Source: Pseudomonadota bacterium
Lineage (GTDB): Bacteria > Pseudomonadota > Alphaproteobacteria > RF32 > CAG-239
DNA: 64,000 nt
Direction of reading: 5' to 3'
Assembly (NCBI GenBank): GCA_918234285.1
Contig: CAKJXZ020000012.1
Coordinates: forward strand, 35,050 to 99,049
The position numbers were made by a program, and so were the translations under genes. The notes under the pieces are model-generated. The model saw only the letters and a program-made list of their open reading frames with translations. It made no database searches and had not been told where the DNA came from. Shown here in pieces: positions 13,510 to 51,335 of this stretch (its first letter is position 1; each line of letters begins with the position of its first letter).

Positions 13510-13544
13510 GTTGCCGATAAATAAGATTTTTCATTAATAAAACA

Positions 13545-14621
13545 TTGGCGGGCTATCAATCCGGTCGCGGAGGGGTGGATAGCTACGGCGTAGACCACAG
13601 CGGTTTTACCACGCGCGATGAACTGGAATATCAAAGCGCGCGATTGGCCAGAGAAAATCAACTGGCGGAAGGTTTTGCTAAGCAAGGAATTGCCGAAGAA
13701 AACTACCCGCAGTATGGCACAAATTTTTGGGGTGGTTCGCCGGAAAATAACTACGGCTTCGGCACTTCAAATATTAAGCAAAATATTGAAAATATTACAA
13801 ACCGGTTGAACAACGGCGCAAACAGCGGGCAAGTCTTCGCAAATTCCGACCATTCTGTCAACACCGAAAGCTTAGTCGGTCAACCAAGCAGTTATTTTCA
13901 AAATAATAGCTCTGCTTTTGTAAATAATAACACCAGCGGCTTAGGAAATAACAATACAAGCGGTTTGAATAGTACTGCCACTGGCGGATTCAATAACGAC
14001 AGCACAAAACTTAATCAAAATAACTTGAGCGAAAATGGTACGAGTGAGGTGGATACATTACAACAATCTCAACAATTATCACAAATTCCGGAATGGCAAA
14101 AACCAGCATACAGCTCTACACACATGTATGCGTGGCAGAGAAATAAGCAACCACCCATATTGTGGCAAACTAATCAACAAGATATGCTTTCCCCCGGACG
14201 TGCAATTGATTATAAAAAATTGGCTGAGGGTATCTTGAATAACCAATCTGTACAGCCAGATATGATACAACATGATAATCAAAAAGGATATAACATTCGA
14301 AACGATAATAATTATGAGTGGACAAACTCAGAACCTTATGATCGTGGAGGAGATATAATATCAGTGTACAATAATTTTAGAAAAATAAACACAGAAAACC
14401 CAATTATATCACCAACATCATCTGGAAACAAAGTTACGGATTTTGTTGTTATACAAAGAATTAAAAAGTTGTATCCTCACTTGGCAAAAATGATAAGAGC
14501 ATATGATTTAGGTTACAGAGGGGCAGGTTATTATGATAATTTAAAAAGAGCATATCGCGAAAGTCACCGTTATGATAGAGTATTTTCTGATGAGGAACTT
14601 TTATCGTTGCAAAATCGGTAA
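13545..14621 (+). CDS. Putative polymorphic toxin A1 lacking its native promoter, RBS and ATG; conserved N-domain plus unknown C-terminal domain
   Basis: The first ~115 aa closely match the 46915 ORF but MDIWDEIK is missing. The TTG start has no RBS. The C-terminus is unrelated to the other copies. Confidence 0.65.
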   Translation: MAGYQSGRGGVDSYGVDHSGFTTRDELEYQSARLARENQLAEGFAKQGIAEENYPQYGTNFWGGSPENNYGFGTSNIKQNIENITNRLNNGANSGQVFANSDHSVNTESLVGQPSSYFQNNSSAFVNNNTSGLGNNNTSGLNSTATGGFNNDSTKLNQNNLSENGTSEVDTLQQSQQLSQIPEWQKPAYSSTHMYAWQRNKQPPILWQTNQQDMLSPGRAIDYKKLAEGILNNQSVQPDMIQHDNQKGYNIRNDNNYEWTNSEPYDRGGDIISVYNNFRKINTENPIISPTSSGNKVTDFVVIQRIKKLYPHLAKMIRAYDLGYRGAGYYDNLKRAYRESHRYDRVFSDEELLSLQNR

Positions 14622-14647
14622 TATTTGATTACAATTACATAAACCCC

Positions 14648-14732
14648 AAAAACAGAGAGTATGTAGCAGAATTTCTGCTTCTGCATATTGGGCACATATT
14701 AGGAATACTTCGCTACAACTCTCTGTTTTTTT
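14648..14732 (+). repeat. Long imperfect inverted repeat / terminator-like hairpin between toxin A1 and its candidate immunity gene
   Basis: AAAAACAGAGAGT-A-TGTAGC ... GCTACA-ACTCTCTGTTTTT followed by further Ts. Confidence 0.65.
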
Positions 14733-14762
14733 TGAAAACTGGAAATATGCGGAGAGTGTAAT

Positions 14763-15236
14763 ATGAAAAATATTGATAAAGAAGTTTGTATATTCGGCGG
14801 TTGTTATTTTGCAAGCGAATATATCATTTATATTTTTACTGGATTTTTACAATTTCTCATACAACATCTGCCGCAAAATTTGAATGCAATTTTTATTTTC
14901 TTGAGTGATGCTCTCACCATATTCTCCGGATTAATGTTTGTGCTGTTTGTGGTACTTTTATTACGGTATTTATTTACACAAAAGTCTTTATCGATTATTA
15001 GCAAAATTCACAACAAATTTCCGAAGATTTCGGTGTATTTGTATTATTTGGGGTATGCAGGTTATATTTTGCTTGCGCTGAATGTGTTGCTATTGATACC
15101 GCTTTATGCTATGAATTTGAGTGAAATTGTGCAAAATATCATCGTATGGACATTAACAGTCATTAATATTTTGGGATTATTATTCCCCCTTGTTTTTGCA
15201 AGTTATAAGGTATTTTACAAACCCAAAAGATGTTAG
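14763..15236 (+). CDS. Integral membrane protein (~4 TM), candidate immunity for A1
   Basis: GGAGAG RBS; four hydrophobic stretches; lies directly after the toxin C-terminus. Confidence 0.6.
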   Translation: MKNIDKEVCIFGGCYFASEYIIYIFTGFLQFLIQHLPQNLNAIFIFLSDALTIFSGLMFVLFVVLLLRYLFTQKSLSIISKIHNKFPKISVYLYYLGYAGYILLALNVLLLIPLYAMNLSEIVQNIIVWTLTVINILGLLFPLVFASYKVFYKPKRC

Positions 15237-15245
15237 ATAGATTAA

Positions 15246-15926
15246 CTCAATAACAGCGGATTTGGTAACGGTACAAATAACGGTCAAGTCTTTGCAAATT
15301 CTGATTATACCGTCAATACCGAAAGCCTAGTCGGCAAACCGAGCAGTTATTTTCAGAATGGTAATTCTGTTTTTGCAAATAACAATACCAGCAATTTGGA
15401 AAATAATAACACAAGCGGCGCTAATACAACAATAGGGCAACAGGATAATAATGTAGGAAGTAATAATTCTATTGTTCAAAGTATTACTGCATTAAATCCG
15501 ATTAATGCCGGTTATCAAATCGGACAGAAAATTGGTGAATTTGCTGCTGATACAAAGTTAGCATATGATTATTGGCAAAAGATGAATCAAACAGGAAACC
15601 AACTTGTTACAACGTTCGGTTCTGGACAAGGTGCTGATATAGATAATTATTACCATCCATTATTACAGTGCGAATTAGCAAAAATAAGTCCGCAAAGTCG
15701 AAATAATGGTATTGCTTTGGGTTATGCTAAAGAGTATCTGATGGATTATCCTAAAAAGAGGTTTTTACAACACCAAAGCCATGATGAAATTATGAAAGAT
15801 AGTAGAAAAGACTTGCAAAACAATCTTTATGGTAGTAACTTAGGGTATGATAATCCAAGCAGAAGCTGTGAGGATTTGTTGGATGACAGAAGAACACCCA
15901 ATATGCGCAAATTAGGCATAAAGTAA
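15246..15926 (+). pseudogene. Orphan toxin cassette A2 (no start codon) with SAA-like C-terminal domain
   Basis: Frame opens after TAA at 15243 and reads NNGQVFANSDYTVNTESLVGKPSSYFQN, the shared linker. The C-terminus has DNYYH..C...KE...DSRKDLQNNLYG...SC. Confidence 0.7.
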
Positions 15927-15996
15927 TTATCGAATGATATAGAGGGAGTTAACGTTATTTAATCCCCTCTATATTTATTACATGGAATGTGTTAAA

Positions 15997-16200
15997 ATGA
16001 AGAAAAATATATTAAAATCAATTCTGTATGTGGTTTATAAATGCGCATTGTATTTTATTGTGGCAACTTTTATTGCCGTTCTTTTTATACAAATATTTTA
16101 CCTCTATGAAGAAAACAAATTTATAGACGATTGTGTTAAAAAAGGAGATACCCGGGAACATTGTCAGAGTATTTGGTCTGAAATAGATGCCTTAAATTAA
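15997..16200 (+). CDS. Small membrane protein with CxxxGxxxExC motif, candidate immunity
   Basis: Hydrophobic helix then FIDDCVKKGDTREHC; paralogous to the next gene. Confidence 0.6.
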   Translation: MKKNILKSILYVVYKCALYFIVATFIAVLFIQIFYLYEENKFIDDCVKKGDTREHCQSIWSEIDALN

Positions 16201-16220
16201 AATTATAGAGGAGGATTGTG

Positions 16221-16421
16221 ATGAGCTTATTCAAAGATATATCAACAGACGTTATTAAACTATTGTGCTGGATTGGGTTCTTTATTGCATTATTTTTTAT
16301 TGCAACTACAGCTTTTTATTATTGGGATTTCTATATAAATTTGGAACAAAATACAAAATTGATTCAAGAATGTATGGATGAAGGTAATAGTGAAGAAGTC
16401 TGTAAAGGCAGAGTTTATTGA
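16221..16421 (+). CDS. Small membrane protein with CxxxGxxxExC motif, candidate immunity paralog
   Basis: RBS GAGGAGG; hydrophobic helix then LIQECMDEGNSEEVC. Confidence 0.65.
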   Translation: MSLFKDISTDVIKLLCWIGFFIALFFIATTAFYYWDFYINLEQNTKLIQECMDEGNSEEVCKGRVY

Positions 16422-16498
16422 ACTTCGAGGACATAGCAAACAAAATAACTTTACCTCTCAAAGTTAAATACAAAAGAGGTTGGTAATTTACATAATAG

Positions 16499-16530
16499 GC
16501 AAGAGTTGAAATATACTCTTGCTCTTTTTT
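16499..16530 (+). terminator. Intrinsic terminator
   Basis: GCAAGAGT-TGAAATAT-ACTCTTGC followed by TCTTTTTT. Confidence 0.6.
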
Positions 16531-16689
16531 ATTTACACTGTATTATATTCTTAATTCAACTTAAAATGGTGCAATTATGCTTAAAAATTTACTTCTGATG
16601 ATGAAAAACAATAAAGAAAAAACGGCTCCCCTCTGTTTTTGTGGATGCTGTGCTTCAATTTATTATGTTTGAGAACAGCGGAGAGTAAA

Positions 16690-17262
16690 ATGGTAACAAA
16701 AGATAGAATATATATGACATTTAAATATCTCGGGTGTTTTCTTGCATGCAATATTTTATTGTGGGCTATGATATGGCTTATTGCCGAATTAGACCAAGAC
16801 AAACTTGAGCTGATTGATTGCTTTGCGTTTGAATACGGATATATTACAAAAACACTTAGTTACCAAAGTTATTTACAAGGAGCTTGCACCTACCCGCAAA
16901 TATGCACGTGCGCCGTAAATGCCGAATGGATATTGTTTTTCTATATTTGGGCTTTGCCGATTTTTGTTTTTTATGAAGTTTTTCGGCGCAAAATCATTCC
17001 GGCACAATACACCTATTTGTTTGTTTTTGGCGAAATTGCTTTTTGGTCGGTTATATGTTTTTTATGCCAAGACAATGCACCCTTTTTATGGTTTCCGCTC
17101 GGGAATACTTACAAAATCATCGCACCTATGGCAATTATTATGCTCGCATTACACAGCTTGCCGCCGAAAGTACTTAAAGTGCTCTCTACAATCATCGGCA
17201 CGATTTACGGGTTGTATTGGGGAATTTTTATAGCAATGATTGTCCCGAACTTTTTCCGCTAA
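16690..17262 (+). CDS. Multi-TM membrane protein with Cys-containing loop; orphan immunity candidate, paralog of 48176..48751
   Basis: GGAGAG RBS; ALPIFVFYEVFRRKII aligns with IIPLYLLYDYVRRKIV; same downstream hairpin and junction. Confidence 0.65.
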   Translation: MVTKDRIYMTFKYLGCFLACNILLWAMIWLIAELDQDKLELIDCFAFEYGYITKTLSYQSYLQGACTYPQICTCAVNAEWILFFYIWALPIFVFYEVFRRKIIPAQYTYLFVFGEIAFWSVICFLCQDNAPFLWFPLGNTYKIIAPMAIIMLALHSLPPKVLKVLSTIIGTIYGLYWGIFIAMIVPNFFR

Positions 17263-17266
17263 AAGA

Positions 17267-17291
17267 AGGAGGCCACAGAGCCTCCTTTATT
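17267..17291 (+). terminator. Terminator hairpin, also present at ~48787-48810
   Basis: AGGAGGC-CACAGA-GCCTCCT-TTATT. Confidence 0.6.
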
Positions 17292-17303
17292 GTGTAATAT
17301 GAG

Positions 17304-17413
17304 TGGCGCAGAATTTCAGCAAGCAAGGAATAGCCGAAGAAAACTACCCGCAGTTCGGCACCAACTTTTGGGGCGGAACACCGGAAAATAACTACGGCTT
17401 CGGCGCCAACCCC
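17304..17413 (+). repeat. Truncated remnant of the conserved toxin N-terminal repeat (right end of locus A)
   Basis: Encodes AQNFSKQGIAEENYPQFGTNFWGGTPENNYGFG(ANP), near-identical to ~47060-47160. Confidence 0.9.
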
Positions 17414-17560
17414 GTATATCTCCTAAGGTTTGATTGATTTTAGGCAGAATAAATTTATTTAAATGATGTCATTATCCAAAAAATTTGTTTTTGACAATTT
17501 TTTACTTGATTTTTTGTACAAAATGTGTTTTTATAAGAAGACCAGAGTAGGAGAACATCA

Positions 17561-19036
17561 ATGACAGACGAGAATATGGAAGATATCACGGAAACGACGG
17601 AAGCGGGAGATACCGAGGATACACAAGTCGCGGAAGATATCGAGCAAGAAGCAGCGCAAGAGGAGGAAACTACGATTCCGCCTGACATGTCGTTGCAAAT
17701 GTTGGCAGAAACAATTGATCCTATCAGCCGTAAAGAGCTGTTTGAACACGGATTGAACATGTTGCAAATTTCGGCGGAGAAAAAGCCGATTGTTGCTGAA
17801 TATTATAAGAGTCTGCGTGATGAGTATTTCGGTCCGGATGTACCGGAAGAAGAAGCAATAAACGCGCCGATTGAAGATGAACGGCAACGAAATTTGGTTG
17901 GCGAATTTTTAGATAATAAGCTTGACTTGATTAAGTCAGATGTGGTGAGTCTTAATTCGGATAGTGTGAATAAAGCGTTTGCGGAAATTTTTACTTTGGT
18001 CGGTGTAAAAGTAAGTCCCGAAAAGTTGGAAGAAAGTTTTTACGATCAACTGTTTGAAACGCGTTGTGAGAATATTCCGGAACTGTTGGACGAATACAAA
18101 ATTTTGCAACTCAACCGCAGTTTATACCATATTTATGCCAACAAAAGCGGTACGTTGGCTCTGAACGGTATTATCTTGCAAATGGAAAAATACTATTCTC
18201 AAAAAGATATAACGCGTGAACAGTTGGCGCAGTTTTATTATAACATCGGTTGCATTTATGACGTTCATTCTTTGCAGAAAAATACCGAAAAGATGGTCAA
18301 AGAAGAACATATGTTGGCACTGAGTTATAAGCGTAAGGCTTTGGATAAAACCAGAAAGAATATGGAATTGATTTTGAATGTTCATCGTGACTGGTGTACC
18401 AACTACGACTATAAACCGCAGAAAATTCTCGATGCTTGCCATCGAGTAATCGATAATTCCGGCGACAGTCGAAGTCTGTATCAGGCCCATATGCTTTATG
18501 CCGAAACTCTGCAAGACTTTAGAGGCACCGAGGGTTTCGGTAGTCAGCGCGAAAAACGCGTGGCTTCAATTATCAAGCACTATCGCAAAGCGGTAAATTA
18601 TACCGAAAATGAAGAAGAAAAAATCGATATACTCGATATGATTTCCGCGCAGCAGAAAAATTACGATAAGCCGGCTTATATCCGTACGCGGATGGAAATG
18701 GCTTCGTTATTGAATTATCGCGCCAAAATCAGAGAATACAGTCGTTTGGTTGATGAAACCGATGATTTCAAATTGAAATCGTTTTTGTTTATGTCCGGAA
18801 TTAATGAGTTTTACGAACTCAGCGGTATTGATGACGAAGACCGCCAGTTGTATGACGATTTGGATGCCAAATTCCGCAAGACCATTGAGGATAACGGCGG
18901 TGATGCAAAAGTTATTGCCAAATTGAATGAATTGAAAAAAGAATACGGCACTGCAGATAAAAAAGAGCCGGAAATGTTATTTGTACGGGCATCAACCAGC
19001 GGACATGATTTTTTCGGTTCAGGTAAAGGCAGATAA
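17561..19036 (+). CDS. Hypothetical protein, acidic N-terminus, helical (TPR-like) body
   Basis: 491-aa ORF with AGGAG RBS; YYNIGCIY and HMLYAETL look TPR-like. Confidence 0.7.
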   Translation: MTDENMEDITETTEAGDTEDTQVAEDIEQEAAQEEETTIPPDMSLQMLAETIDPISRKELFEHGLNMLQISAEKKPIVAEYYKSLRDEYFGPDVPEEEAINAPIEDERQRNLVGEFLDNKLDLIKSDVVSLNSDSVNKAFAEIFTLVGVKVSPEKLEESFYDQLFETRCENIPELLDEYKILQLNRSLYHIYANKSGTLALNGIILQMEKYYSQKDITREQLAQFYYNIGCIYDVHSLQKNTEKMVKEEHMLALSYKRKALDKTRKNMELILNVHRDWCTNYDYKPQKILDACHRVIDNSGDSRSLYQAHMLYAETLQDFRGTEGFGSQREKRVASIIKHYRKAVNYTENEEEKIDILDMISAQQKNYDKPAYIRTRMEMASLLNYRAKIREYSRLVDETDDFKLKSFLFMSGINEFYELSGIDDEDRQLYDDLDAKFRKTIEDNGGDAKVIAKLNELKKEYGTADKKEPEMLFVRASTSGHDFFGSGKGR

Positions 19037-19050
19037 AAAGGAGAAAGATA

Positions 19051-19587
19051 ATGTCTCGTCGCTCTTGGATATTAAGTTTTTTGATTGTGCTCGCCGGATT
19101 GTTTTCGGCGCAGGCTCGAACTATGAAAATGCAACAAATTAACTGTGTTATGCGCGATTCAAAAGAATTTTGCACGTCGCTGAAACACAGGCCGTTGAAC
19201 GGTAAAGTGGCCGTTCAGAGTCCGGACGGTAATTTAGGCAGTATCAGCGAGTTCAAAAAGGGATATCGCCACGGCGAGAGTCTGTTTTACGATGGCAACG
19301 GCTATATGACCGAGAGAATTCTTTTCCGCGACGGCATGAAGGATGGAGTGTCCTTATATTATCATAAAAACGGTAAAGTTTGGATATCCGCGCCATATAT
19401 CAAAGCTTTGTTGGACGGTTCGGTTGATATATATGACGTAAACGGTAAAATTCGCGGCAAATTCAAATATGACAAGGGTAATTTAAAGTGGGGATATTGT
19501 AAACGCAAAGGTCAACATAAAGTTAAATATCCCAATCGCAAATCCTTTGTCGAAAACAACCAACTTGTTACATGCGGTCCAAAATGA
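19051..19587 (+). CDS. Exported MORN-variant repeat protein (YwqK-like)
   Basis: Signal peptide; repeats FKKGYRHGESLFYDGNG, FRDGMKDGVSLYYHKNGK, LLDGSVDIYDVNGK. Confidence 0.8.
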   Translation: MSRRSWILSFLIVLAGLFSAQARTMKMQQINCVMRDSKEFCTSLKHRPLNGKVAVQSPDGNLGSISEFKKGYRHGESLFYDGNGYMTERILFRDGMKDGVSLYYHKNGKVWISAPYIKALLDGSVDIYDVNGKIRGKFKYDKGNLKWGYCKRKGQHKVKYPNRKSFVENNQLVTCGPK

Positions 19588-20429: not shown

Positions 20430-20465
20430 ACATCGGCCAGAACCTAACCGGAAGGACTAAGAATT

Positions 20466-25031: not shown

Positions 25032-25835
25032 ATGAATAAGATTGCAAAATTGCTGAAATGGGGAGTTTTATTGGGTTCTATTCTGCTTTTTGAAGCGGTT
25101 ATTTACGAACCTTACAGCCTGAAGATAACTTCGTATGATTTGCAAAATCCGCAGCTTTCCGGCCTTAAAATCGTGTTTGCGGCGGATTTTCATATTGCAC
25201 CGTACGGTTGGGAAAAGCGGCGATTAAACAGGATTATCGACACCATAAACAAACAAAAAGCTGATTTGGTTATTTTGGGCGGAGATTACGTGAACCGGCA
25301 TAATAAAACGGGAACTATGCCACCGGAGTATATTGCCGCCGCCTTGCAACGGATTACCGCTCCAAAGGTGGCGGTGCTGGGCAATCATGATTCTTATTAC
25401 GGCAAAAAAGAAGTCAAGGGGGCTTTGGAAAATGCCGCAATTCCCGTATTGGATAACAGCAACCTCTCAATCAATCTGCAGGGCAGGGAAGTATATGTTG
25501 CCGGCGTGAGCGATTATGATACGGATAAGCCGGATATAGAAAAGGCTGTGCAAAATACCCAAACACCGCTGATTTTTGTTACCCATTCGCCCGATGTGTT
25601 CGTTAATCTCAAAGACGAGGCAGATATATCCTTTGCCGGACATACCCACGGCGGGCAGATTGTTTTGCCGTTTTGGGGCGCGTTGGTAGTCAACACCGAC
25701 AGCGGCAGAAAATACACTTACGGCTTGTTTATGGAATACGGCAAACCGCGGATAGTGTCTTCCGGTTTGGGTACCAGCATTTTGCCGGTGCGCTTCAATA
25801 ATCGTCCGGAGATTGTAGTGGTGGAATTTGAATAA
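25032..25835 (+). CDS. Metallophosphoesterase (YkuE/YaeI type)
   Basis: ADFH, GGDYV, GNHD, THSPD, GHTHGGQ. Confidence 0.9.
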   Translation: MNKIAKLLKWGVLLGSILLFEAVIYEPYSLKITSYDLQNPQLSGLKIVFAADFHIAPYGWEKRRLNRIIDTINKQKADLVILGGDYVNRHNKTGTMPPEYIAAALQRITAPKVAVLGNHDSYYGKKEVKGALENAAIPVLDNSNLSINLQGREVYVAGVSDYDTDKPDIEKAVQNTQTPLIFVTHSPDVFVNLKDEADISFAGHTHGGQIVLPFWGALVVNTDSGRKYTYGLFMEYGKPRIVSSGLGTSILPVRFNNRPEIVVVEFE

Positions 25836-25871
25836 AAAAAATCCCTCGCGGCGGTTAAGCGGCGGGGGATT
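25834..25871. repeat. Repeated hairpin/terminator AAAAAAATCCCTCGC..GTTAAGC.GCGGGGGATT (copies at ~26896-26933 and partial at 26703)
   Basis: Near-identical copies visible; A-run flanks the hairpin; located at gene ends. Confidence 0.75.
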
Positions 25872-25876
25872 GCTGT

Positions 25877-26314
25877 TCAATTTCCGGATTTTTTCTCATG
25901 TCTGTGCTCGGATAGCAACACATACGCAAAACCGAAGATGATTAAGATACCGAAAAATGTGATAAAGCTGTAATTTGTATGAAAGGTAGCTTCAATCTGT
26001 GCTTTATTCCATTCTCCCAACATAAAGTAGGTACGATTGCCTTCCAGACGGTAGGAGCAATTGTGAAGTTCGACCGCTGTAACCGGCATTCCCACAACCG
26101 GTTTGATTTTGGTATAGCCGAGTTTTCTTTCGCCGGTATAAACTTTTTTTACGGCATAACGGGTACTACCGATTTCCACATAATACACGCCTTCGTCTGC
26201 GGCGATTTGTCCGCTACCGATGATTTCCGGTTCAAGCGGTTCGCTGTCAAAACACGAGCACCCCACCAATGCCACCCCGAGTGCGGCAATCAACATAAAT
26301 ACGATTTTTTTCAT
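25877..26314 (-). CDS. Hypothetical lipoprotein with C-terminal TM
   Basis: MKK signal peptide with LVGC lipobox; C-terminal hydrophobic helix. Confidence 0.65.
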   Translation of the reverse strand: MKKIVFMLIAALGVALVGCSCFDSEPLEPEIIGSGQIAADEGVYYVEIGSTRYAVKKVYTGERKLGYTKIKPVVGMPVTAVELHNCSYRLEGNRTYFMLGEWNKAQIEATFHTNYSFITFFGILIIFGFAYVLLSEHRHEKKSGN

Positions 26315-26412
26315 AAGCAGAATAATATTTTGGTTATAATTATAAATTTGTTGCTTTTGTTTTAAATAAAAAATCTGTTTAAGTCAAGCATTATGCTTTG
26401 TATGGTTGCCAT

Positions 26413-26653
26413 AAAAAAATAGTCCCTAAGGTGCTCGACCAAAGGGACTATAACAGACATGAATATAGTTGACGCACAGAGTATCTCACGACAGTCTGAC
26501 AACAACCTGCGTATTAATGCTTCACAGCATCGCCACGCACATTAGTAACTCTTTAAAACTAAAAACTTATGAATGACTACTACAATCTCACATTAATGTC
26601 TCTCGACATTTTACTTATGTGGTAATAAATAAATACAGCATAATATAATTGAT
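26413..26653 (-). ncRNA. Candidate small RNA with three GNRA-capped hairpins
   Basis: Minus-strand promoter TTGATT-16nt-TATAAT (26687-26660); hairpins at 26589-26621, 26508-26539 and 26477-26498; terminator 26419-26451 plus U-run; no ORF found. Confidence 0.5.
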
Positions 26654-26740
26654 GGGCTCATTATAGATGCTTATTTGCAAAAATCAAGCTTTTTTTATAT
26701 ATAAAAAAATCCCTCGCTGCGTGCCGCGCAAAGAAATAAA

Positions 26741-26890
26741 GTCATCCCTCTCGCAGCGCTGTGCGTCTGCGAGTCAAGGGATCCGACCTTTGCGAAGCGC
26801 AATATTTTATATAAAGCGGAAGCAATGCCTGCGGCATTGAAAGACGATATCCTTGGACGCACGGACACACCGTGCCGTGCAAAGGATGAC
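26741..26890. mobile_element. MITE/REP-like palindromic element
   Basis: GC-rich, with terminal inverted ends GTCATCCCT...AAGGATGAC and direct repeat CGTGCCG(C/T)GCAAAG at 26720 and 26871. Confidence 0.5.
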
Positions 26891-26943
26891 AATAATAAAA
26901 AAATCCCTCGCAGCAGTTAAGCAGCGGGGGATTAGAAGTTTAA

Positions 26944-27345
26944 TCAGAACATGAGTTTTGCCAGCATCAGCAACAGCGACAGTCCGACAATTCCTTCGTA
27001 AATCGACGCCCAGAAGAACGGCGATATCAGAATTGCAGCAGCCGCAAAGACAGCCGCGGCGGTAAAGCCCGCATGATACAGCACCAACACCACTCCGGCC
27101 ATAATCATCCACTGATATTGCATCCAGAGTAGATGGACCATTCGGTGTAGACTGATGTTGTAAATCAACGTATTGACCGCACATACCAATATTCCGATGA
27201 AGAAATAATTGCTAACCGTTTCCCAATCGGTAAGGTAGTACAGCGCGCCCCACAGCAGGGCAATCACAACGTTGGTCCAACAGAAAATCCTCCGGAACTT
27301 TTTAAGTTGGTAGAGGCAGTAGTTCAGTATTGTTAACAGATTCAT
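26944..27345 (-). CDS. Hypothetical membrane protein
   Basis: Start MNLLTILNY overlaps (ATGA) the stop of the upstream gene; several TM segments. Confidence 0.6.
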   Translation of the reverse strand: MNLLTILNYCLYQLKKFRRIFCWTNVVIALLWGALYYLTDWETVSNYFFIGILVCAVNTLIYNISLHRMVHLLWMQYQWMIMAGVVLVLYHAGFTAAAVFAAAAILISPFFWASIYEGIVGLSLLLMLAKLMF

Positions 27346-27653
27346 ACTTTCTTGGGTTTGCGTTTGTAATTTTTCAAGAACAAAGGCAACAGCATCAGTG
27401 CACCTAACGGCATTAGCCACCATGGTTTCGCCGGTGCAAAAATCTGAGTGATGAAGATGAGGACGACGATCCAGAGCGTTTCTCCCGTAAACAAGAGAAC
27501 AAGATAGTTGTTTTTGAGCCTTGACCTTTCGGCGGCATTCGAGCACATCTGTACTTTTTTGTTCATGTACTTGCGATAAGTCAGGAACAAAATGACAGCC
27601 ACAAACAACCACGCCAAAACAATAATTGCGGGGTTTTCAAGTAATAACTTCAT
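27342..27653 (-). CDS. Hypothetical membrane protein (~3 TM)
   Basis: 103-aa hydrophobic ORF coupled to the downstream gene. Confidence 0.6.
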   Translation of the reverse strand: MKLLLENPAIIVLAWLFVAVILFLTYRKYMNKKVQMCSNAAERSRLKNNYLVLLFTGETLWIVVLIFITQIFAPAKPWWLMPLGALMLLPLFLKNYKRKPKKV

Positions 27654-27720
27654 AGGCAATAATATTTGTAATGATAGAAATTTGCTATAATGATAATCAA
27701 TGTAATGTCAAGTATATACA

Positions 27721-27752
27721 AAAAAACGACAAAGTCAATGACTTTGTCGTTT
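27721..27752 (-). terminator. Terminator after bcp
   Basis: Perfect palindrome AAACGACAAAGTCA-A-TGACTTTGTCGTTT with flanking A-run. Confidence 0.7.
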
Positions 27753-27771
27753 AAATCAGGCAAATGATTGT

Positions 27772-28215
27772 TTAAGCGTTTTGTAAAGCAGCCAGAACCT
27801 CGTCAACATGGCCGGCAACTTTAACTTTGCGCCATTCCTTGACGATTTTACCTTCGGCATTGATAATGAAGGTGGAACGTTCAATACCCATATATTTACG
27901 CCCGTACATCGATTTTTCTTTCCAAACGCCGTATTTTTCCGCCAGCTCGTGATTGACATCGGCCACCAACATAAAATTCAGATTTTGTTTTTGCTGAAAC
28001 TTTTGATGGCTGACAACACTGTCCGGACTGACACCGACAACTTCGGCATACGCCGTCAATCGGCTCATATTGTCGCGAAAATCACAAGCTTCTTTGGTAC
28101 ATCCGGAAGTATTGTCTTTCGGATAGAAATACAAAACCGCAGTTTTACCGTGGAGATTTTGTTCGTCAAACTCCGTCGGCTGTCCGTTTTTATCAATCGC
28201 TTGCAGAATCATCAT
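27772..28215 (-). CDS. bcp: Peroxiredoxin BCP/PrxQ
   Basis: VLYFYPKDNTSGCTKEACDFRD; GIERSTF. Confidence 0.93.
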   Translation of the reverse strand: MMILQAIDKNGQPTEFDEQNLHGKTAVLYFYPKDNTSGCTKEACDFRDNMSRLTAYAEVVGVSPDSVVSHQKFQQKQNLNFMLVADVNHELAEKYGVWKEKSMYGRKYMGIERSTFIINAEGKIVKEWRKVKVAGHVDEVLAALQNA

Positions 28216-28237
28216 TTTCTCCCGTCAGCCGTGCCGA

Positions 28238-29446
28238 TTATTTTTTGAAAATAACCACACCCGGAAGTTCTTTACCTTCCATCCACTCCAAAAAGGCACC
28301 GCCGGCCGTTGAAATGTAGCTGAATTTATCGGCCACACCGGCATTGGCCAAAGCCGATACCGTATCACCGCCGCCGGCAACCGAAGTCAATTTTCCGGCC
28401 TGAGTCAGTTCTGCGGCATATTGGGCAACGGCGTTGGTAGCGGCATCAAACGGCTTAAGTTCAAATGCACCGAGCGGACCGTTCCATACCAAAGTTTTGC
28501 ATTCTGCCAATTTGGCTTTGATGTTGGCAACCGTTTTGGTGCCGACGTCAAGCAAAGTTCCATCTTGCGGAATATTATCGATATCAACGGTTTTATGCGG
28601 TGCGTCGGCGGCAAATTCTTTAGCCCATACCAAATCCAATGGTAAAATCACCTCGCAGTTATGAGCCTTGGCCGTTGCCAGAATTTCTTTAGCCGTATCA
28701 AGCATATCCATCTGCACCAAAGAGTTGTTTTCGTTAATACCGTCAGCGCCCAAAACTTTGAGGAAAGTATGAGCCATACCGCCGGAGATTACCAGTTTGT
28801 CAACCTTTTTAACCAAGTTATTCAATAAATCGAGTTTGGTGGAAACTTTGGAACCGCCGACAATAGCCATCAGCGGACGCGTCGGGTTATTCAAACCTGA
28901 AGTTAAAGCGGCAACTTCTTCCGCCATCAACAAACCCATGGCAGACGGCAATAATTCCGGTGCCGCCACCATTGAAGCGTGAGCACGGTGAGCGGTTGAA
29001 AATGCATCGGAAACATAAACATCGGCCGGCTTAACCAATTCTTTAGCCCAAGCTTCATCGCCTTTCTTTTCTTCGTTATAATAACGCAGATTTTCCAAAA
29101 GCAACACTTCATCAGCTTTCATATTTTTAACCGCGGTTGCAACCGCATCGCCGATACAATCTTCAACAAAAACAACTTTGCTGCCGAGAGCTTTTTCAAG
29201 TTCCGGTGCCACATAGCGCAGAGAGTTTTTGATGTCGCCTTTGCCTTCCGGACGACCGAAGTGAGAAATCACCACAACTTTGGCACCTTTGTTCATCAGA
29301 GTTTTAATGGTCGGAACCGTACGGTCGATACGTGCGGTGTTGGTAACATGAAAATCTTCATCCATCGGTACGTTTAAATCGGCGCGAAGCATTACGACTT
29401 TGCCGTTCAAATCACCTAAATCTTCAATAGTTTTATATTCTTGCAT
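28238..29446 (-). CDS. pgk: Phosphoglycerate kinase
   Basis: RADLNVP, SHFGRP, LLENLR, HRAHAS, GGSKVSTK, WNGPLG, GGGDT, STAGGAFLE. Confidence 0.98.
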   Translation of the reverse strand: MQEYKTIEDLGDLNGKVVMLRADLNVPMDEDFHVTNTARIDRTVPTIKTLMNKGAKVVVISHFGRPEGKGDIKNSLRYVAPELEKALGSKVVFVEDCIGDAVATAVKNMKADEVLLLENLRYYNEEKKGDEAWAKELVKPADVYVSDAFSTAHRAHASMVAAPELLPSAMGLLMAEEVAALTSGLNNPTRPLMAIVGGSKVSTKLDLLNNLVKKVDKLVISGGMAHTFLKVLGADGINENNSLVQMDMLDTAKEILATAKAHNCEVILPLDLVWAKEFAADAPHKTVDIDNIPQDGTLLDVGTKTVANIKAKLAECKTLVWNGPLGAFELKPFDAATNAVAQYAAELTQAGKLTSVAGGGDTVSALANAGVADKFSYISTAGGAFLEWMEGKELPGVVIFKK

Positions 29447-43899: not shown

Positions 43900-43912
43900 T
43901 CCTCATCTATAC

Positions 43913-43990: not shown

Positions 43991-44007
43991 CTTTAATTTG
44001 CTTCCGA

Positions 44008-44742: not shown

Positions 44743-44894
44743 ATTTATTTCCTTTTAATAATTTTAATTGTTCAAACAGGTATAACATAATCACATTTTT
44801 TTATTTAAGCAAGTAAAAAAATATAGTTCAAAATAAAAGTGGACTTTAAATTATTTTGCGTTAAGATTAACGGCAATAGAGGGGAGAAATCGAA

Positions 44895-45554: not shown

Positions 45555-46606
45555 TGGATTTAAGCTATTTGTTTTATTTGAGCAGCGGTTTGTTTTTGGG
45601 GTGGTCGTTGGGTGCCAATGATGCCGCCAATATTTTTGGTACGGCCGTCGGCTCTAAAATGGTACGCTTTTCTACTATTGCTGCGGTGGCCAGTATTTTT
45701 GTGGTTATCGGGGCGGTGTTCGGCGGTTCCGGTACCAGTGAAACCCTGGGCGCACTCGGCTCGGTGAATGCGTTGGCCGGAGCGTTTATGGTGGCTCTTT
45801 CGGCGGCATTGGCCGTGTATATGATGTTGCGCACCGGTTTAACCGTATCCACTTCGCAGGCGATTGTCGGTGCGATTGTCGGTTGGAACCTTTATGCCGG
45901 AAAACCTACCGATTATACTACTTTGGCAGAGATTGTCGGTACCTGGACCACCTGTCCGCTGTTATCAGGCATAGTGGCGATTATCTTGTATCTGTGTTTG
46001 AAAAAGTTGCGGAAGTGCTCGAGTATGCACCTCTTGACGCGTGATCAGGTGACGCGCATCGGATTGATTATTACCGCAGCGGTCGGAGCTTATGCGCTCG
46101 GCGCCAACAATATTGCGAATGTGGTGGGGGTGTTTATGAAATCGTGCCCGTTTAAGCCGCTTCATTTCGGTAATTTTACCACGCTTAATCCGCACCAGGT
46201 GCTGTTTTTGCTTGGTGCTATAGCGATTTGTATCGGTATTTGGACTTATTCTCGCAAGGTAATTAAAACCGTGGGCAACAGCCTGATGCGGATGTCGCCG
46301 TCGGTGGCGCTGATTATTGTTTTGGCGCAAGCTACGGTGTTGTTGCTGTTTTCGTCGGTAAGCCTGCATGATTGGTTGGCAGCCTCTTCTTTGCCGACTA
46401 TTCCGTTGGTGCCGGTATCAAGCACTCAGGCGGTTATCGGCGCAGTTATCGGTATCGGACTGATAAAAGGCGGGCGCGGCATTAATTGGGGCATTATCGG
46501 CAAAATCGTCACCGGTTGGGTGGTGGCGCCGCTGATGGCGATGTTGATTTGCTTTATCTGCCTGTTTTTCTTGGAAAACGTGTTTAACCAAACAGTATTT
46601 ATGTGA
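45554..46606 (+). CDS. pit: Inorganic phosphate transporter, PiT family
   Basis: GANDAAN and GANNIAN signatures; VSTSQAIVG and PVSSTQAVIG. Confidence 0.92.
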   Translation: MDLSYLFYLSSGLFLGWSLGANDAANIFGTAVGSKMVRFSTIAAVASIFVVIGAVFGGSGTSETLGALGSVNALAGAFMVALSAALAVYMMLRTGLTVSTSQAIVGAIVGWNLYAGKPTDYTTLAEIVGTWTTCPLLSGIVAIILYLCLKKLRKCSSMHLLTRDQVTRIGLIITAAVGAYALGANNIANVVGVFMKSCPFKPLHFGNFTTLNPHQVLFLLGAIAICIGIWTYSRKVIKTVGNSLMRMSPSVALIIVLAQATVLLLFSSVSLHDWLAASSLPTIPLVPVSSTQAVIGAVIGIGLIKGGRGINWGIIGKIVTGWVVAPLMAMLICFICLFFLENVFNQTVFM

Positions 46607-46700
46607 TTTAGCGATTTTTTTGCTCGCGTTTATTTTTGCCTTCAAAATAAGATTTTTCATTTTATACACCGTTTTATTTTATATTTTTCTTATTTTAAAC

Positions 46701-46914
46701 TTGACAGAGATATAAAGTTGTGTTATTCGTATATTGTCTCTGTTGTTGACATCATGTTTGTTTTCTTTCAATAAACCGCAATGGCTTTCGGGCTTATGCA
46801 GTTTGTTTTGATGTCGCGATAGAATAATAAATAAATTATTGTATAAGAATTTAATTATAAAATTAAAGGAGTAATAAAAATGAAAATAGAAAACTTTTAT
46901 AAAAGGAGGCAAAT
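46701..46914 (+). promoter_or_regulatory. Putative promoter/leader of the head toxin gene, with tandem RBSs
   Basis: TTGACA at 46701; AAGGAG before ATG 46880 (18-codon uORF); AGGAGG before ATG 46915. Confidence 0.45.
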
Positions 46915-48224
46915 ATGGATATTTGGGACGAAATAAAGACATTGGCGGGCTATCAATCCGGCCGCGGAGGGGTGGATAGCTATGGGGTTGACCACAGCGG
47001 ATTTTCAACGCGTGATGAGTTGGAATATCAAAGTGCGCGATTAGCCAGAGAAAATCAACTGGCGGAGAATTTCAGCAAGCAAGGGATAGCCGAAGAAAAC
47101 TATCCGCAGTTCGGCACTAACTTTTGGGGAGGAACGCCGGAAAATAACTACGGCTTCGGCACTTCAAACATTAAGCAAAATATCGAAAACGTTACAAATC
47201 GGCTTAATAACAACACAAATAACGGGCAAGTCACTACAAATTCCGATTATACAGCCAACACCGAAAGCTTGGTCGGAAAACCGAGCAGTTATTTTCAAAA
47301 TAACAACACTTTCGGTGGGTTTAGCAATAACAACACAGGCAATACAGCTAATACGATAGGACAATCAAATAGTAATACTATGGGAAATAATAACCCAAAT
47401 ACTTGGAGTAATACCGGCGGTTTTGGCGGATATACAAGCAACGGATTTAGCACAAATGCGAATATGGGGACTAATGCAAACTTTGGCGCAAATCCGAGCT
47501 TTGCTGCAAGTCCAAGCTACTGCACTACGCCGACGTTACAAAATCAAACCCCGACGCCGTGGAGTTGAGTTATAACGAACCACAAACGACACCAACCCCG
47601 TGGAACAATCCGTCAGCACAGGTTACACCGTCTCCGTGGGTCGATAATTCTCTGACCAAAAATCAACGTATTCTAGCACTAAGATACGGAAAACCACTAA
47701 ACCTATATATGGGAAATGCATGGAATGCGAACTATGAATGGCCTTGGTACACAATGAATTGGTTGGGTAAGTATTATGTAGATAAGCATAATAATGATAT
47801 TGAAAAATATGCTATTCAAAATAATATAAATCCAGACTTAGTTCGTGCGGTAATGTATAATGAAGGCGCTACAGGACATAAAGGTATATTCAACTATTTA
47901 TGGGATGTTTTGGGATGGTCAGGTAGTCAAATGCCGATGAATATTCAAGGTAAGACATGGGGAGATTTTGACGGCAAACACTATGATACTGACATACCTC
48001 AGCAGAATATTGAATTAGGAACAAAGGTTTTGAAACAAATGCAAAATTCCTTAAATGAACCTACGCCGGATAGAGTTGGAACATTATGGAATGAGACCGG
48101 AGCCAATAATATAAATGACGTTGGTGCAAGAGTGAAGACGGCTTATGATACAAAACCTTGGTTAGGAGAAAAACAATGGGAGCAAAAGCTATTGGAGTTC
48201 TTTTTCGGAAACAAGAAAAAATAA
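46915..48224 (+). pseudogene. Head toxin B1: conserved N-domain + Asn-rich linker + SLT/lysozyme-like C-terminus, frameshifted by a 5-bp duplication
   Basis: ORFs 46915..47568 and 47559..48224 fuse in frame if one GAGTT of GAGTTGAGTT (47562-47571) is removed. The CT has IEKYAIQNNINPDLVRAVMYNE...QNIELGTKVL...WN. Confidence 0.8.
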
Positions 48225-48751
48225 TACGTTATATTTTGGCGGCAACATGGTTCGTTTTTGCAACCATTGTAGCCGTCACATTATATCGTGCCGGTATGGA
48301 AACCAATAATAATGGAGAATCTTGTGATTATAATATATGGGAAAAAGGTTTAATATACCAATGGATATGGTACGGAGGTGAACCATGTATCTTTTCCTTA
48401 GAATATTACATAACCGTATCTTTTTTTATAATTCCGCTCTATCTCTTATATGACTATGTTCGGCGGAAGATAGTAGGATTTAATCCGGATATTCTTTGGC
48501 GGATGGCAGAAGTAGGAGTATGGTTTGTCTTAAATTGGGGATATTTATTGTGGCTGACCGCAACGGATTACGGAACATTAAATTGGACAATGGGTTGGAC
48601 ATCTTTTGTCGGCACTTTGCTGTTTTTTGTTCCGATTATTCTATTGACAAGCGGTGTGCGTTTTTTAAGCAATCGTGCGGTTTTATGGACATTCTTCGGA
48701 ATTCTGCTTGCTTATTTCGGCTTGGTGTTTTTAGCCATAGTATATCAATAA
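48176..48751 (+). CDS. Membrane protein with Cys-containing periplasmic loop, candidate immunity for B1
   Basis: AGGAG RBS and ATG 48176 overlap the toxin 3' end; multi-TM; paralog of 16690. Confidence 0.7.
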   Translation: MGAKAIGVLFRKQEKIIRYILAATWFVFATIVAVTLYRAGMETNNNGESCDYNIWEKGLIYQWIWYGGEPCIFSLEYYITVSFFIIPLYLLYDYVRRKIVGFNPDILWRMAEVGVWFVLNWGYLLWLTATDYGTLNWTMGWTSFVGTLLFFVPIILLTSGVRFLSNRAVLWTFFGILLAYFGLVFLAIVYQ

Positions 48752-48822
48752 TTCAACAAGGTAGCGACATTCACAACTAAAAGTAAAAGAGGCTGCAAAG
48801 CCTCCTTTGTTCCGCAATATGA

Positions 48823-49968
48823 GTGGTACGATATTATAGCCAAATGGGGATAGCACAAGAAAACTACCCGCAGTTTGGTACAAACTTTTGGGGAGGAACG
48901 CCGGAAAATAACTACGGCTTCGGCACTTCAAACATTAAGCAAAACATTGAAAGTGTTACAAACCGGTTGAATAATGGCGGTTTTAGTGGCGGCACAAATA
49001 ACGGATTTAATAACAACACAAATAACGGTCAAGTTTTTGCAAATTCAAACTATACGGTCAACACCGAAAGCTTAGTCGGCAAACCAAGCAGTTATTTTCA
49101 AAATAATAACACTTTCGGTGGGTTTAGCAATAACAACACAGGCAATACAGCTAATACGATAGGACAATCAAATAGTAATACTATGGGAAATAATAACCCA
49201 AATACTTGGAGTAATACCGGTAGCTTTGTCAGAAATAAAAGCAACGGGCCTAACGCAAATACGAATTTTGGCGCAAATCAGAGTTTTGCAACAACGTCAA
49301 CGCAGCAGATGACCACCCCGACGCCGTGGAGCAATCCTGCGGAACAAATCAGTCCGGTGCCGTGGCGGAATAATCAAACAGTAACACCATGGGCAGGAGG
49401 TTATGATTTAAGCGATGAATACACTATTACTATAAATTCAAATCCACAACCTTATATATTTTCTGAAGATATGCGCAATCGCCTGGGTGAGTTGGAATCT
49501 GGTAATAATTATACTAAAGTGAATTCAGAAGGTGGTGGTATCGGAGCGTTAGGCAGATATCAAATTCGTCGTGATGGTTTTAAAGATTCCGGATATATCA
49601 ATGCAAACAATCAATGGGCTGGAAAAAATGATATTAATTCTGTGGATGATTATCTAAACAATTCAGCACTTCAAGAACAAGCATTAGACGATTTTATGAA
49701 AGCAAAATACCATCAGCTCCAAAATAATGGTTCTCGCCAATATTTAGGTTATCCAATAAAGGGAATTGTTGACAACTTTAATATTACCGATACAGGACTT
49801 TTAGCGGCAAGTCATCGTGAAGGGGCCGGAGCTGTTCATAATTATTTATCTCATCTTGAAAAAGATGAAAATGGGCGATACTACTTGAATTATGATAAAG
49901 TCTCTGACCCCCGCCAACGAGAGATGTTTAAGCGAATTGAAACAAGGTTGAGAAAATTTGAAAAATAG
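48823..49968 (+). pseudogene. Orphan toxin cassette B2 (5'-truncated) with lysozyme-like C-terminal domain
   Basis: Begins mid-conserved domain right after a terminator, with no RBS. The CT has LGELESGNNY..VN...ALGRYQ...YLNNSALQE...GLLAASHREGAG. Confidence 0.75.
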
Positions 49969-50563
49969 TTTGTTGATATTACTTATAGCTTTATCTTGCG
50001 GCTCAGCTTATGCTTTGCCGCAAGATTGGCCATGTAAAGATTTTGAACTCCAAAAATGTGAACAAACCGAAAAATCAACCGACTATATTGTATATTGCGG
50101 AAAAGATAATGACTATGCATTGAAAGTAAATGTGTTTTGGCAGAAAGATAAGGAAGCCGATGATTGCGGCACTGCAGGATGCGATGGCACAATTAAAAAT
50201 TTAAAAACAGAACAAGAGGAAAATTTGCGTTTCTTTTGCAAAACTGAAAATAATTACAATATAGCAAAGTGCCATATTCGAGTAGGAGAAGAATATATAT
50301 TACACAAAGTTACAGATGATTATTATCAAGTTAATTTATGCAATAATACTTTTTTTAAGTATGTTAATTTTAATGAATGTTCCGAATGTATGTGTATAGT
50401 TCACGATTCAAGAAAAAAAGGCGGTGATTCTGATTTTTATATGGGATGCGGAATTGGAAATAGTAATAAATTACATTGTATGACCGGAAATATTTACGAA
50501 GAGAAATATAATCCGACCAATGATAATGATTTTAAAAACTGTATTAGTTTAAGGATAAGATAG
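49958..50563 (+). CDS. Exported Cys-rich protein, candidate immunity for B2
   Basis: TTG start overlapping the toxin stop; Sec signal (SAYA|LP); many Cys including DDCGTAGC. Confidence 0.7.
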   Translation: MKNSLLILLIALSCGSAYALPQDWPCKDFELQKCEQTEKSTDYIVYCGKDNDYALKVNVFWQKDKEADDCGTAGCDGTIKNLKTEQEENLRFFCKTENNYNIAKCHIRVGEEYILHKVTDDYYQVNLCNNTFFKYVNFNECSECMCIVHDSRKKGGDSDFYMGCGIGNSNKLHCMTGNIYEEKYNPTNDNDFKNCISLRIR

Positions 50564-50781
50564 AATTTTCTGATTTTGATAATTTTCCATTACCATTAAA
50601 AGAAGTGTTGCTGGATATTCAGTATAATACTGGAAACTTAAACCAACAAAATTGGCCAAATTTATACCGTGCAACCAGAAACCGCGACGTTAATGGCATT
50701 GTATCAAACGTGCATCGCAGAGACGTGGCTCAAAGACGTAATAATTGGACAAGAGATACGGCGCGCTCAATCCGATTCTGA
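50563..50781 (+). pseudogene. C-terminal remnant of a T4-lysozyme/pesticin-like muramidase (toxin B3)
   Basis: Unannotated frame EFSDFDNFPLPLKEVLLDIQYNTGNLNQQNWPNLYRATRNRDVNGIVSNVHRRDVAQRRNNWTRDTARSIRF*; no start codon. Confidence 0.65.
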
Positions 50782-51213
50782 TGGAACGTAATCAGGAGGA
50801 GTAACACAGTATTTTGCTGCATGCATTTCATTTTCGGAAAAATCTTCTATTTTTCGATAATTGTATTCTAATATGCGTAGGCAATCTGGCATAAATAAAC
50901 CTTTTATTACATATGTGTAATATTCTTTCTTTTTTTCGTTACGCCATGTAACATCGCACAACAGGGTAATGTGGTCTTGTTTATTTTCAACAAGTTCACA
51001 TTCCCCTGTGCTATCAACAAGATTTTTATCTAATGGTGTTCTAAAATCAATTGTTTTAGGTGTCAAATAAGTCCACCCCACAGTGCTACTCAATGGTTCT
51101 AACGGTTGATAAAAAATTGGATTAACAAACTCTTGTTTATTTACATTATCATCTGCCCGAGCATTTGCGCTTAAACTCAAAAACAGCCCTAAAATCAAAA
51201 CCAACTTTTTCAT
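50767..51213 (-). CDS. Exported protein, candidate immunity for B3 (convergent, overlapping)
   Basis: GGAG RBS; signal MKKLVLILGLFLSLSANARA; 4 Cys; own TTGACT promoter-like sequence at 51266; 15-nt 3' overlap with the muramidase remnant. Confidence 0.7.
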   Translation of the reverse strand: MKKLVLILGLFLSLSANARADDNVNKQEFVNPIFYQPLEPLSSTVGWTYLTPKTIDFRTPLDKNLVDSTGECELVENKQDHITLLCDVTWRNEKKKEYYTYVIKGLFMPDCLRILEYNYRKIEDFSENEMHAAKYCVTPPDYVPSESD

Positions 51214-51287
51214 TTTTATACTCCATAAAATTGTAATTATAATAAAATATATATTGAAAAAGTCAACAAAGGATTATCCTTAACCGA

Positions 51288-51335
51288 TACAAACTTTTGG
51301 GGCGGCTCGCCGGAAAACAACTACGGCTTCGGCAC
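51288..51335 (+). repeat. Minimal remnant of the conserved core (right end of locus B)
   Basis: TACAAACTTTTGGGGCGGCTCGCCGGAAAACAACTACGGCTTCGGCAC = TNFWGGSPENNYGFG. Confidence 0.9.

Follow-up and report, generated by a model that had tools for sequence, protein, structure and literature searches.

Two arrays built on one N-terminal module

The window analysed here, a 64,000-nt stretch of an alphaproteobacterial genome (C12:35050–99049 of a 2.0-Mb, 71-contig assembly; the source genome is 100% complete by markers), holds two gene arrays, beginning at 13519 and 46644, in which one conserved N-terminal protein module (the N-module) recurs in front of different C-terminal domains. Comparison with the rest of the genome and with its relatives suggests that these are very probably two decaying arrays of lineage-restricted polymorphic antibacterial toxins with their immunity genes (Table 1).

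With ORF 46915–47568 as the query (blastn, tblastn), its first ~130 codons are found six times in the window, whole or in part, all on the plus strand and with E values from 2e-12 to 7e-125. Besides the 46915 copy, the module extends over 13536–13906 (blastn, 85% over 372 nt, E = 2e-118; tblastn, module residues 8–170 kept at 13539), 15267–15467 (86% at 15273–15359, E = 2e-24; residues 99–159 at 15267), 17303–17416 (94% at 17304–17404, E = 3e-40; residues 49–86 at 17303), 48823–49332 (81% at 48847–49266, E = 7e-125; residues 49–217 at 48823) and 51289–51341 (87%, E = 2e-12; residues 68–83 at 51289). This six-fold recurrence, proposed in a first-pass annotation of the DNA, is confirmed as far beyond chance, with small shifts in coordinates: the copy placed at 13545 is present and begins at module residue 8, with homology from 13536, and the copy placed at 15246 shows homology only from 15267. 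The four C-termini that the annotation had called unrelated (A, B, D and E) do differ; between the module of the 46915 gene and its C-terminus lies a frameshift. Of a fifth, the remnant that it described, the final 72 residues are left, belonging to a GH24-like lysozyme domain (50563–50778), and the membrane or exported Cys-containing ORF that it saw after each C-terminus is matched by the hydropathy and Cys counts of the listed ORFs. Both of its loci lie in the window, but the genome has three: on contig C69, an intact 436-aa lead gene (8471–9781, minus strand) is followed by a 5′-truncated 389-aa copy and then by a convergent gene for a Cys-rich exported protein. A six-frame profile search of the whole genome gave no module copies beyond these three loci.

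Table 1. Features of the two arrays (window positions; immunity assignments are candidates)
Position	Strand	Feature	Basis
13519–13535	+	17-nt remnant: start of the conserved upstream (promoter/5′ untranslated region) module, fused to N-module codon 8	Read directly
13536–14621	+	5′-deleted lead gene: N-module residues 8–131, Asn/Gly/Ser linker, C-terminus A	blastn/tblastn
14763–15236	+	157-aa protein, three hydrophobic segments; candidate immunity for C-terminus A	
15267–15926	+	Orphan cassette: N-module residues 99–131 and SAA-like C-terminus B	
15982–16200	+	72-aa single-pass membrane protein, 4 Cys (family 3); candidate immunity for C-terminus B	
16218–16421	+	67-aa tandem paralogue of the 15982–16200 gene, one hydrophobic segment	
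16639–17262	+	207-aa multi-pass membrane protein, 10 Cys (family 18); orphan, immunity-like	
17303–17416	+	N-module fragment, residues 49–86, then unrelated sequence and stop	
46644–46914	+	Conserved upstream module: TTGACA-containing promoter-like region, long leader	
46915–48224	+	Lead gene: full N-module, linker with TPxPW repeats, SLT-like C-terminus D	
48158–48751	+	197-aa protein, four hydrophobic segments; candidate immunity for C-terminus D	
48785–48808	.	Bidirectional terminator-like hairpin that separates the first gene pair from the orphan cassette	Consensus match only
48823–49968	+	Orphan cassette: N-module residues 49–132, linker, lysozyme/lytic-transglycosylase-like C-terminus E	
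49958–50563	+	201-aa exported protein, signal peptide, 15 Cys (family 24); candidate periplasmic immunity for C-terminus E	
50563–50781	+	Remnant: last 72 residues of a GH24-like lysozyme C-terminus	
50767–51213	−	148-aa exported protein, 4 Cys (family 4), convergent with the remnant	
51289–51341	+	N-module fragment, residues 68–83	

No Pfam, NCBIfam or PHROG family matches C-terminus A, its AlphaFold2 model made without an alignment (predicted local distance difference test (pLDDT) 50) was too poor for a fold search, and a homologue search found one other cluster only, P0151, which has a different N-terminus. That N-terminus is signal-less and is followed by a Gln/Pro-rich linker; it may be a second trafficking module using the same toxin domains. 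C-terminus B aligns with the Pfam-SAA-positive relatives at an hhalign probability of 96.8% (E = 2.4e-10) and by this comparison is a distant relative of the SAA-like group. C-terminus D has a weak Pfam SLT match (E = 0.002), and C-terminus E, whose relatives are P0006 and P0007, matches PHROG 27932 (baseplate hub/tail lysozyme, E = 4e-8). The GH24-like remnant is 74% identical to residues 303–374 of the intact toxin of one relative (L026) and 78% to that of another (L023).

Among the neighbouring small genes, family 3 follows the C-terminus B group in 9 of 31 cases, and homologues of the family 24 gene after C-terminus E lie elsewhere among other immunity-like genes. The protein at 50767–51213 has an exported-looking N-terminus (MKKLVLILGLFLSLSANARA) that falls below the 19-residue hydropathy threshold, is 84% identical to the copy in locus L054 and is the candidate cognate immunity type for the GH24-like C-terminus. 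The gene at 16639–17262 has no toxin gene in front of it; its product is weakly similar to that of 48158–48751 (29% over 34 aa, E = 9e-4).

The first array is followed immediately by ORF 17561–19036, which encodes a 491-aa acidic protein with no Pfam match. The second array abuts rimP–nusA (51473–53555), and toxin loci lie beside the same housekeeping genes in three relatives (L093, L098 and L100; families 35–37); these shared neighbours suggest a conserved insertion hot spot. On contig C69, at least eight paralogous leucine-rich-repeat proteins, which share a Lys-rich tail conserved at the C-terminus, are encoded in tandem arrays at 70–2761 and 25404–28483.

Decay of the window loci

Both window loci are decayed and not active. 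The 46915 copy alone retains the first seven codons, with an ATG and a strong ribosome-binding site, and a tandem duplication of 5 bp at ~47558–47567 disrupts its reading frame, splitting the lead gene into ORFs 46915–47568 and 47559–48224; relative L029 has an uninterrupted 408-aa homologue. Contigs of two public DNA runs (X1 and X2) have the five extra bases, and those of two others (X3 and X4), which come from another study and are ~1.5% diverged, do not; the frameshift is thus a genuine and recent feature of this strain. At the 13519 locus, the 17-nt remnant equals the opening of the 270-bp upstream module at 46644 and is joined directly to N-module codon 8, homology to the 46915 gene resuming at 13536; a deletion of ~290 bp has therefore taken the promoter, ribosome-binding site and start. 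The sole possible start left to this lead gene is a TTG at 13545 without ribosome-binding site, and the terminator-like hairpin of an upstream porin gene lies immediately before the remnant. The other window copies are 5′-truncated orphans (the cassette at 15267–15926 has no start codon ahead of a TTG at 15396), and the sole intact lead gene of the genome is the one on contig C69. The window arrays are best read as largely silent relics, a record of past cassette exchange.

The region upstream of 46915 is 97% identical to that upstream of the intact C69 gene (346/357, first codons included), and the 270-bp module is also conserved in four of the five relatives aligned. We read this stretch as a putative promoter and leader module; promoter scans gave no excess over shuffled expectation, and an Rfam scan of the window returned tRNA-His only. 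A short upstream ORF (46881–46937), which has a ribosome-binding site to itself, runs across the toxin start codon in a different frame, and relatives L019 and L030 have an equivalent ATG-led ORF; it may couple or regulate toxin translation.

A constant N-terminus with variable C-termini

The first-pass annotation had suggested searching this genome and gut alphaproteobacterial metagenome-assembled genomes with an N-domain profile and tabulating C-termini, downstream genes and secretion systems. A profile (A1) built from 23 N-modules was run against 1.84 billion cluster representatives (50% identity clusters); at E ≤ 1e-3 it matched 261 proteins, and at E ≤ 1e-10 it matched 202. The family proteins are small, mostly 250–450 aa, and in 143 of the 150 listed of these 261 the start of the module lies no more than five residues from the N-terminus. 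A hydrophobic stretch within the first 35 residues was seen in 1 of the 118 proteins with a complete module start, which bears out the proposed lack of a Sec signal.

The N-domain had also been tentatively placed outside described families, and it stays there as far as our searches reach: the 23 N-modules have no Pfam match even at E ≤ 5, NCBIfam and PHROG gave none, the profile found chance matches only among PDB sequences (E about 1), and IMG/VR viral contigs hold no relative. The best feature-based look-alike in the ESM Atlas, a viral hypothetical protein, scores 0.81, which is chance level. Literature searches, mostly at the level of abstracts, found no description of the N-module or of toxins of this lineage. 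The N-module family thus appears to be previously undescribed within the reach of these searches, as a variant within the polymorphic toxins.

AlphaFold2 gives the N-module one helix (residues 32–55) at an overall pLDDT of 59, with residues 66–89 below 50. A long form of ~95 residues consists of a core and an aromatic/Gly-rich stretch. A short form has the first ~45 residues only, without that stretch or the linker, and is joined directly to SAA-like, Tlde1-like or glycine-zipper C-termini in proteins of 149–270 aa (13 such ORFs, spread over 12 of 13 loci retrieved to look for it). Because the short form keeps only these ~45 residues, they are the module core.

The C-termini vary, as the annotation had anticipated. 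Those of the 69 full-length representatives (≥240 aa, among the 150 listed proteins) fall into 26 groups. At E ≤ 0.01, Pfam assigns among these 69 proteins GH108 (11), PG_binding_3 (6), the VgrG3-like C-terminal domain of type VI secretion system (T6SS) effectors (PF21277; 4), SLT (4), SAA, Tlde1 (PF10908), YkuD and Pesticin (3 each), and PBECR2, Phage_lysozyme, GH46 and DUF6973 (1 each). The matched C-termini are mostly of peptidoglycan-acting families known from T6SS effectors and bacteriocins, in line with the peptidoglycan-type domains described at first pass. Seven of ten representatives rescanned singly had no Pfam match.

Neighbouring genes covary with the C-termini, which argues for the proposed partnership between each C-terminus and the gene after it. 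In 83 mapped loci (the 80 best from public genomes and the three of this genome), pairs with the same C-terminus share the downstream family in 241 of 738 comparisons (33%), against 9 of 3969 (0.2%) for pairs with different C-termini; in one C-terminal group the same family follows in 8/8 cases. The GH24-like group has family 4 directly after it on the opposite strand in 15 of 25 cases, the same arrangement as the window remnant with 50767–51213, and in the GH108 group the downstream candidate immunity gene is on the opposite strand in 5 of 10. The downstream orphan cassettes of the first-pass annotation recur as well: 17 truncated copies lie in the 83 loci, and orphan copies keep nested pieces of the module. 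Near toxin loci of relatives (L057, L064, L081, L118 and L129), prepilin-like proteins of 195–314 aa recur; their N-terminal motif resembles that of type IV pilins, and their C-termini are variable.

The three features that mark polymorphic toxin systems at the level of sequence, a constant N-terminus with variable C-termini, a specific adjacent gene and orphan cassettes, are thus all present.

Distribution and accessory gene

All of the 80 best public loci come from uncultured metagenome-assembled genomes, and most of their titles name Alphaproteobacteria, either of the rumen (goat, sheep, yak, deer) or of human gut cohorts; two carry the unconfirmed label of a Bacteroidaceae or Eubacteriales bin. 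The module is present in 38 of 50 genomes of the genus and in 58 of 151 sampled from the order, with per-genus counts of 18/23, 17/34, 11/13, 3/7 and 8/8, and was not found in the other 15 genera of the order sample (5/20 genera of one family positive). A single-sequence search found it in 0 of 24 other families of the class. One genome holds as many as 18 module matches.

A second gene accompanies the family. It encodes a signal-less accessory protein of ~155 aa that belongs to no known family and matches hypothetical proteins only in the ESM Atlas; some copies carry an XRE-type helix-turn-helix (HTH). Of 67 full-length toxin genes, 16 have it 33–113 bp upstream in the same orientation, and of 17 truncated ones none has. 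Across the order sample it occurs in 44 of the 58 genomes with the module and in 9 of the 93 without it, and within the genus in 30/38 against 2/12. This genome has a single copy (C30:114038–114505), away from the toxin loci and beside a serine recombinase gene; the upstream modules of the window hold no accessory-gene remnant.

Interpretation, delivery and alternatives

An intact member consists of the constant N-module without signal peptide, a low-complexity linker and one exchangeable C-terminal domain, the putative toxin. The C-terminal domains that can be named are mostly peptidoglycan hydrolases or L,D-transpeptidase-like enzymes; others, SAA-like or glycine-zipper, are probably membrane-active. 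In the reading that we favour, the next gene would encode an immunity protein of the membrane or periplasm that matches this C-terminus specifically. A new C-terminus with its immunity gene may be swapped in by recombination in the module that the copies share, the displaced cassettes presumably staying downstream as 5′-truncated orphans, and the N-module would act as a trafficking handle, often with the ~155-aa cytoplasmic accessory protein encoded just upstream. We infer a trafficking role for the N-module and delivery into the periplasm of a neighbouring cell.

A search of this genome for export machinery found VirB4 on contig C17 and VirD4 on contig C24 (33033–35246), both from the T4SS (type IV secretion system), and TolB; it did not find TssC (T6SS sheath, PF05943; searched in this genome only), FHIPEP (flagellar or injectisome type III secretion system (T3SS)) or TonB_C. 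Forty-eight of 50 genomes of the genus and 150 of 151 of the order have VirB4, and the one high-completeness module-bearing genome without a VirB4 match (G071) still has VirD4. None of the 83 mapped toxin loci adjoins secretion genes. The VirB-type genes of this genome are split over at least two contigs (C17:20700–38500 and C24:33000–39500), which hold VirB4, two 250-aa proteins resembling VirB8, another protein of 1789 aa and, separately, VirD4, Pfam confirming VirB4 and VirD4 only. VirB4 is single-copy in 150/151 genomes of the order; we read this T4SS as chromosomally fixed across the order and take it to be reminiscent of the Rickettsiales rvh system.

Export in one step by a VirB/VirD4-type T4SS, the only envelope-spanning export machine found, is the leading candidate for delivery, though a tentative one. 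The corresponding T4SS-effector account, a sub-case of the toxin reading that is possible if rather doubtful, holds that VirD4 recognises the N-module, with or without the accessory protein, and that the toxins are injected into neighbours. For it speak the presence of the machine in every module-bearing lineage and the failure to find a T6SS or flagellar T3SS in this genome. The repertoire also resembles the antibacterial T4SS effectors of Xanthomonadales, with their periplasmic immunity proteins, but an N-terminal T4SS signal would be unusual. An account of free-living basal Rickettsiales proposes T4SS-based killing of related bacteria (PMC11077975). The co-occurrence does not discriminate, however, because VirB4 is in 150/151 genomes of the order and the module in 58/151: the machine is available wherever the toxins occur and in many genomes where they do not, and none of the mapped toxin loci lies beside its genes.

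Colicin-like release and uptake comes second as a delivery mode and is unlikely. The bacteriocin explanation to which it belongs, itself improbable, would make the family colicin- or pesticin-like proteins released by lysis or in vesicles, with the disordered N-module acting in the target cell as a translocation region on an envelope protein such as Tol–Pal. The mostly low-confidence model of the N-module with its one helix, the long Asn/Gly/Ser linkers, the pesticin-like and other periplasm-acting C-termini, the lack of linked secretion genes and the presence of TolB would all suit such proteins, as would the opposite-strand candidate immunity genes of the GH24-like and GH108 groups, an arrangement typical of pore-forming colicins. 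A possible resemblance of the N-module to the Tol-binding epitopes of colicins prompted a complex prediction with the TolB of this genome, which gave no answer (score 0.01, mark 0.32) and weighs neither for nor against binding. However, the short form, ~45 module residues and a ~110-aa toxin, leaves little room for receptor binding and translocation, TonB_C was not found in this genome, and the locus maps show no lysis gene, although no dedicated search for one was made. Orphan arrays that keep nested N-module pieces are, moreover, more typical of contact-dependent systems.

It is very improbable that the proteins are not weapons at all, that is, paralogous housekeeping or phage-derived cell-wall enzymes (autolysins or virion-associated lysins) sharing an anchoring domain. 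Many C-termini are lysozyme- or transglycosylase-like, one matches a PHROG tail lysozyme and the best N-module look-alike, at chance level, is viral, but viral contigs hold no relative and no phage genes flank the loci. There are non-wall C-termini too (SAA-like, PBECR2 nuclease, glycine-zipper), the downstream genes are specific to the C-terminus, and the patchy presence, multiple copies and many pseudogenes and fragments are unlike those of housekeeping genes.

Delivery by a so far unrecognised route is no less likely than the T4SS or the colicin-like mode, and we give it an even chance. It is possible, though we advance it with reserve, that the N-module and the ~155-aa accessory protein together mark substrates for an export route undescribed for interbacterial toxins: either a new class of N-terminal signal for an order-wide, chromosomally fixed T4SS serving to kill neighbours in gut and rumen, or a wholly unrecognised pathway in Gram-negative bacteria without T6SS, T3SS or TonB.

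Several observations weigh against the favoured reading of toxins with specific immunity genes and an N-terminal export signal. Many C-termini, including window A and D/E, have no Pfam match or only a weak one. A homologue of the candidate immunity protein at 14763–15236 follows an unrelated C-terminus in relative locus L069, which makes this pairing weaker than the others. Ninety-three of the 151 order genomes have a T4SS without the module, and described T4SS protein signals are C-terminal, in the very part that varies here. Fourteen of the 58 module-positive genomes lack the accessory gene, among them one with 11 module matches (G016); the XRE-type HTH of some copies suggests a regulator and not a chaperone; and, since related genomes are not independent, these associations are overstated.

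Relation to known systems

The loci would work like MafB- or LXG-type loci yet belong to neither family, and they lack the defining features of Rhs/PAAR and CdiA toxins and of effectors with a C-terminal T4SS recognition domain. With Rhs, CdiA and MafB loci, in the outline of Zhang et al. 2012 (PMC3482391), they share a constant N-terminus with exchangeable C-terminal toxins, an adjacent toxin-specific immunity gene and downstream 5′-truncated orphan cassettes that keep homology for recombination. They differ in having no signal peptide, in the small size of the proteins, in the immunity genes that are in some cases convergent with the toxin, and in their lack of the hallmark domains. The marks of Rhs, PAAR and T6SS effectors (YD/Rhs repeats, PAAR, MIX) and of CdiA-type two-partner secretion (TPS domain, haemagglutinin repeats, pre-toxin VENN) gave no Pfam family in the 69 proteins (E ≤ 0.01) or the window ORFs, and the Rhs, PAAR, LXG, MafB and haemagglutinin families are all absent from the 69, as the first-pass annotation had held for Rhs, PAAR and LXG motifs. 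The MafB N-domain (PF06255) has no match at E ≤ 5 on the 23 N-modules, and the ESM Atlas feature score of the N-module to a MafB cluster (0.76) is at chance level.

For LXG, neither the 69 proteins nor the 23 N-modules have a Pfam match, and genes for the T7SS (type VII secretion system) were not searched. The LXG toxins of Gram-positive T7SS have small helical partner proteins encoded upstream, and the accessory gene here likewise encodes a small, helical-looking cytoplasmic protein, often just upstream. A signal-less N-terminal targeting domain and polymorphic C-termini are further common points with LXG toxins as outlined in PMC5555719. The host here is, in contrast, a Gram-negative alphaproteobacterium, and the accessory protein sometimes has an HTH.

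The X-Tfe effectors of the Xanthomonadales T4SS have a recognition domain in common at the C-terminus, whereas the present family is constant at the N-terminus and variable at the C-terminus; no Pfam family of that recognition domain occurs among the 69 proteins. With that system (X-Tfe/X-Tfi), as far as PMC6759196 and PMC11253643 outline it, the loci share wall-degrading effectors, periplasmic or membrane immunity proteins and a genome with a VirB/VirD4 T4SS in which no T6SS was found. Pesticin and colicin M resemble the family in their lysozyme-type killing domains (Pfam Pesticin in 3/69), flexible N-terminal region and exported immunity proteins, some of them encoded on the opposite strand; the family differs in its orphan arrays, in having no recognisable receptor-binding domain and in a genome in which TonB_C was not found. 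Periplasmic T6SS effectors have in common with it the Tlde1 (3/69) and VgrG3-type (4/69) domains as C-termini, but the 69 proteins have no PAAR or Rhs domain and this genome, the only one searched, has no TssC.

Significance

When new N-terminal families of polymorphic toxins came to light, each gave a lead to a delivery route, as LXG did to the T7SS, and MafB and TANFOR did in their turn. The family described here is abundant in poorly known, uncultured, small-genome Alphaproteobacteria of the human gut and rumen, and its module and accessory gene offer a handle for finding how these organisms export proteins and compete. It is also a catalogue of unannotated toxin and immunity domains, given the seven of ten rescanned representatives without a Pfam match, and a marker of strain-level competition in gut and rumen metagenomes.

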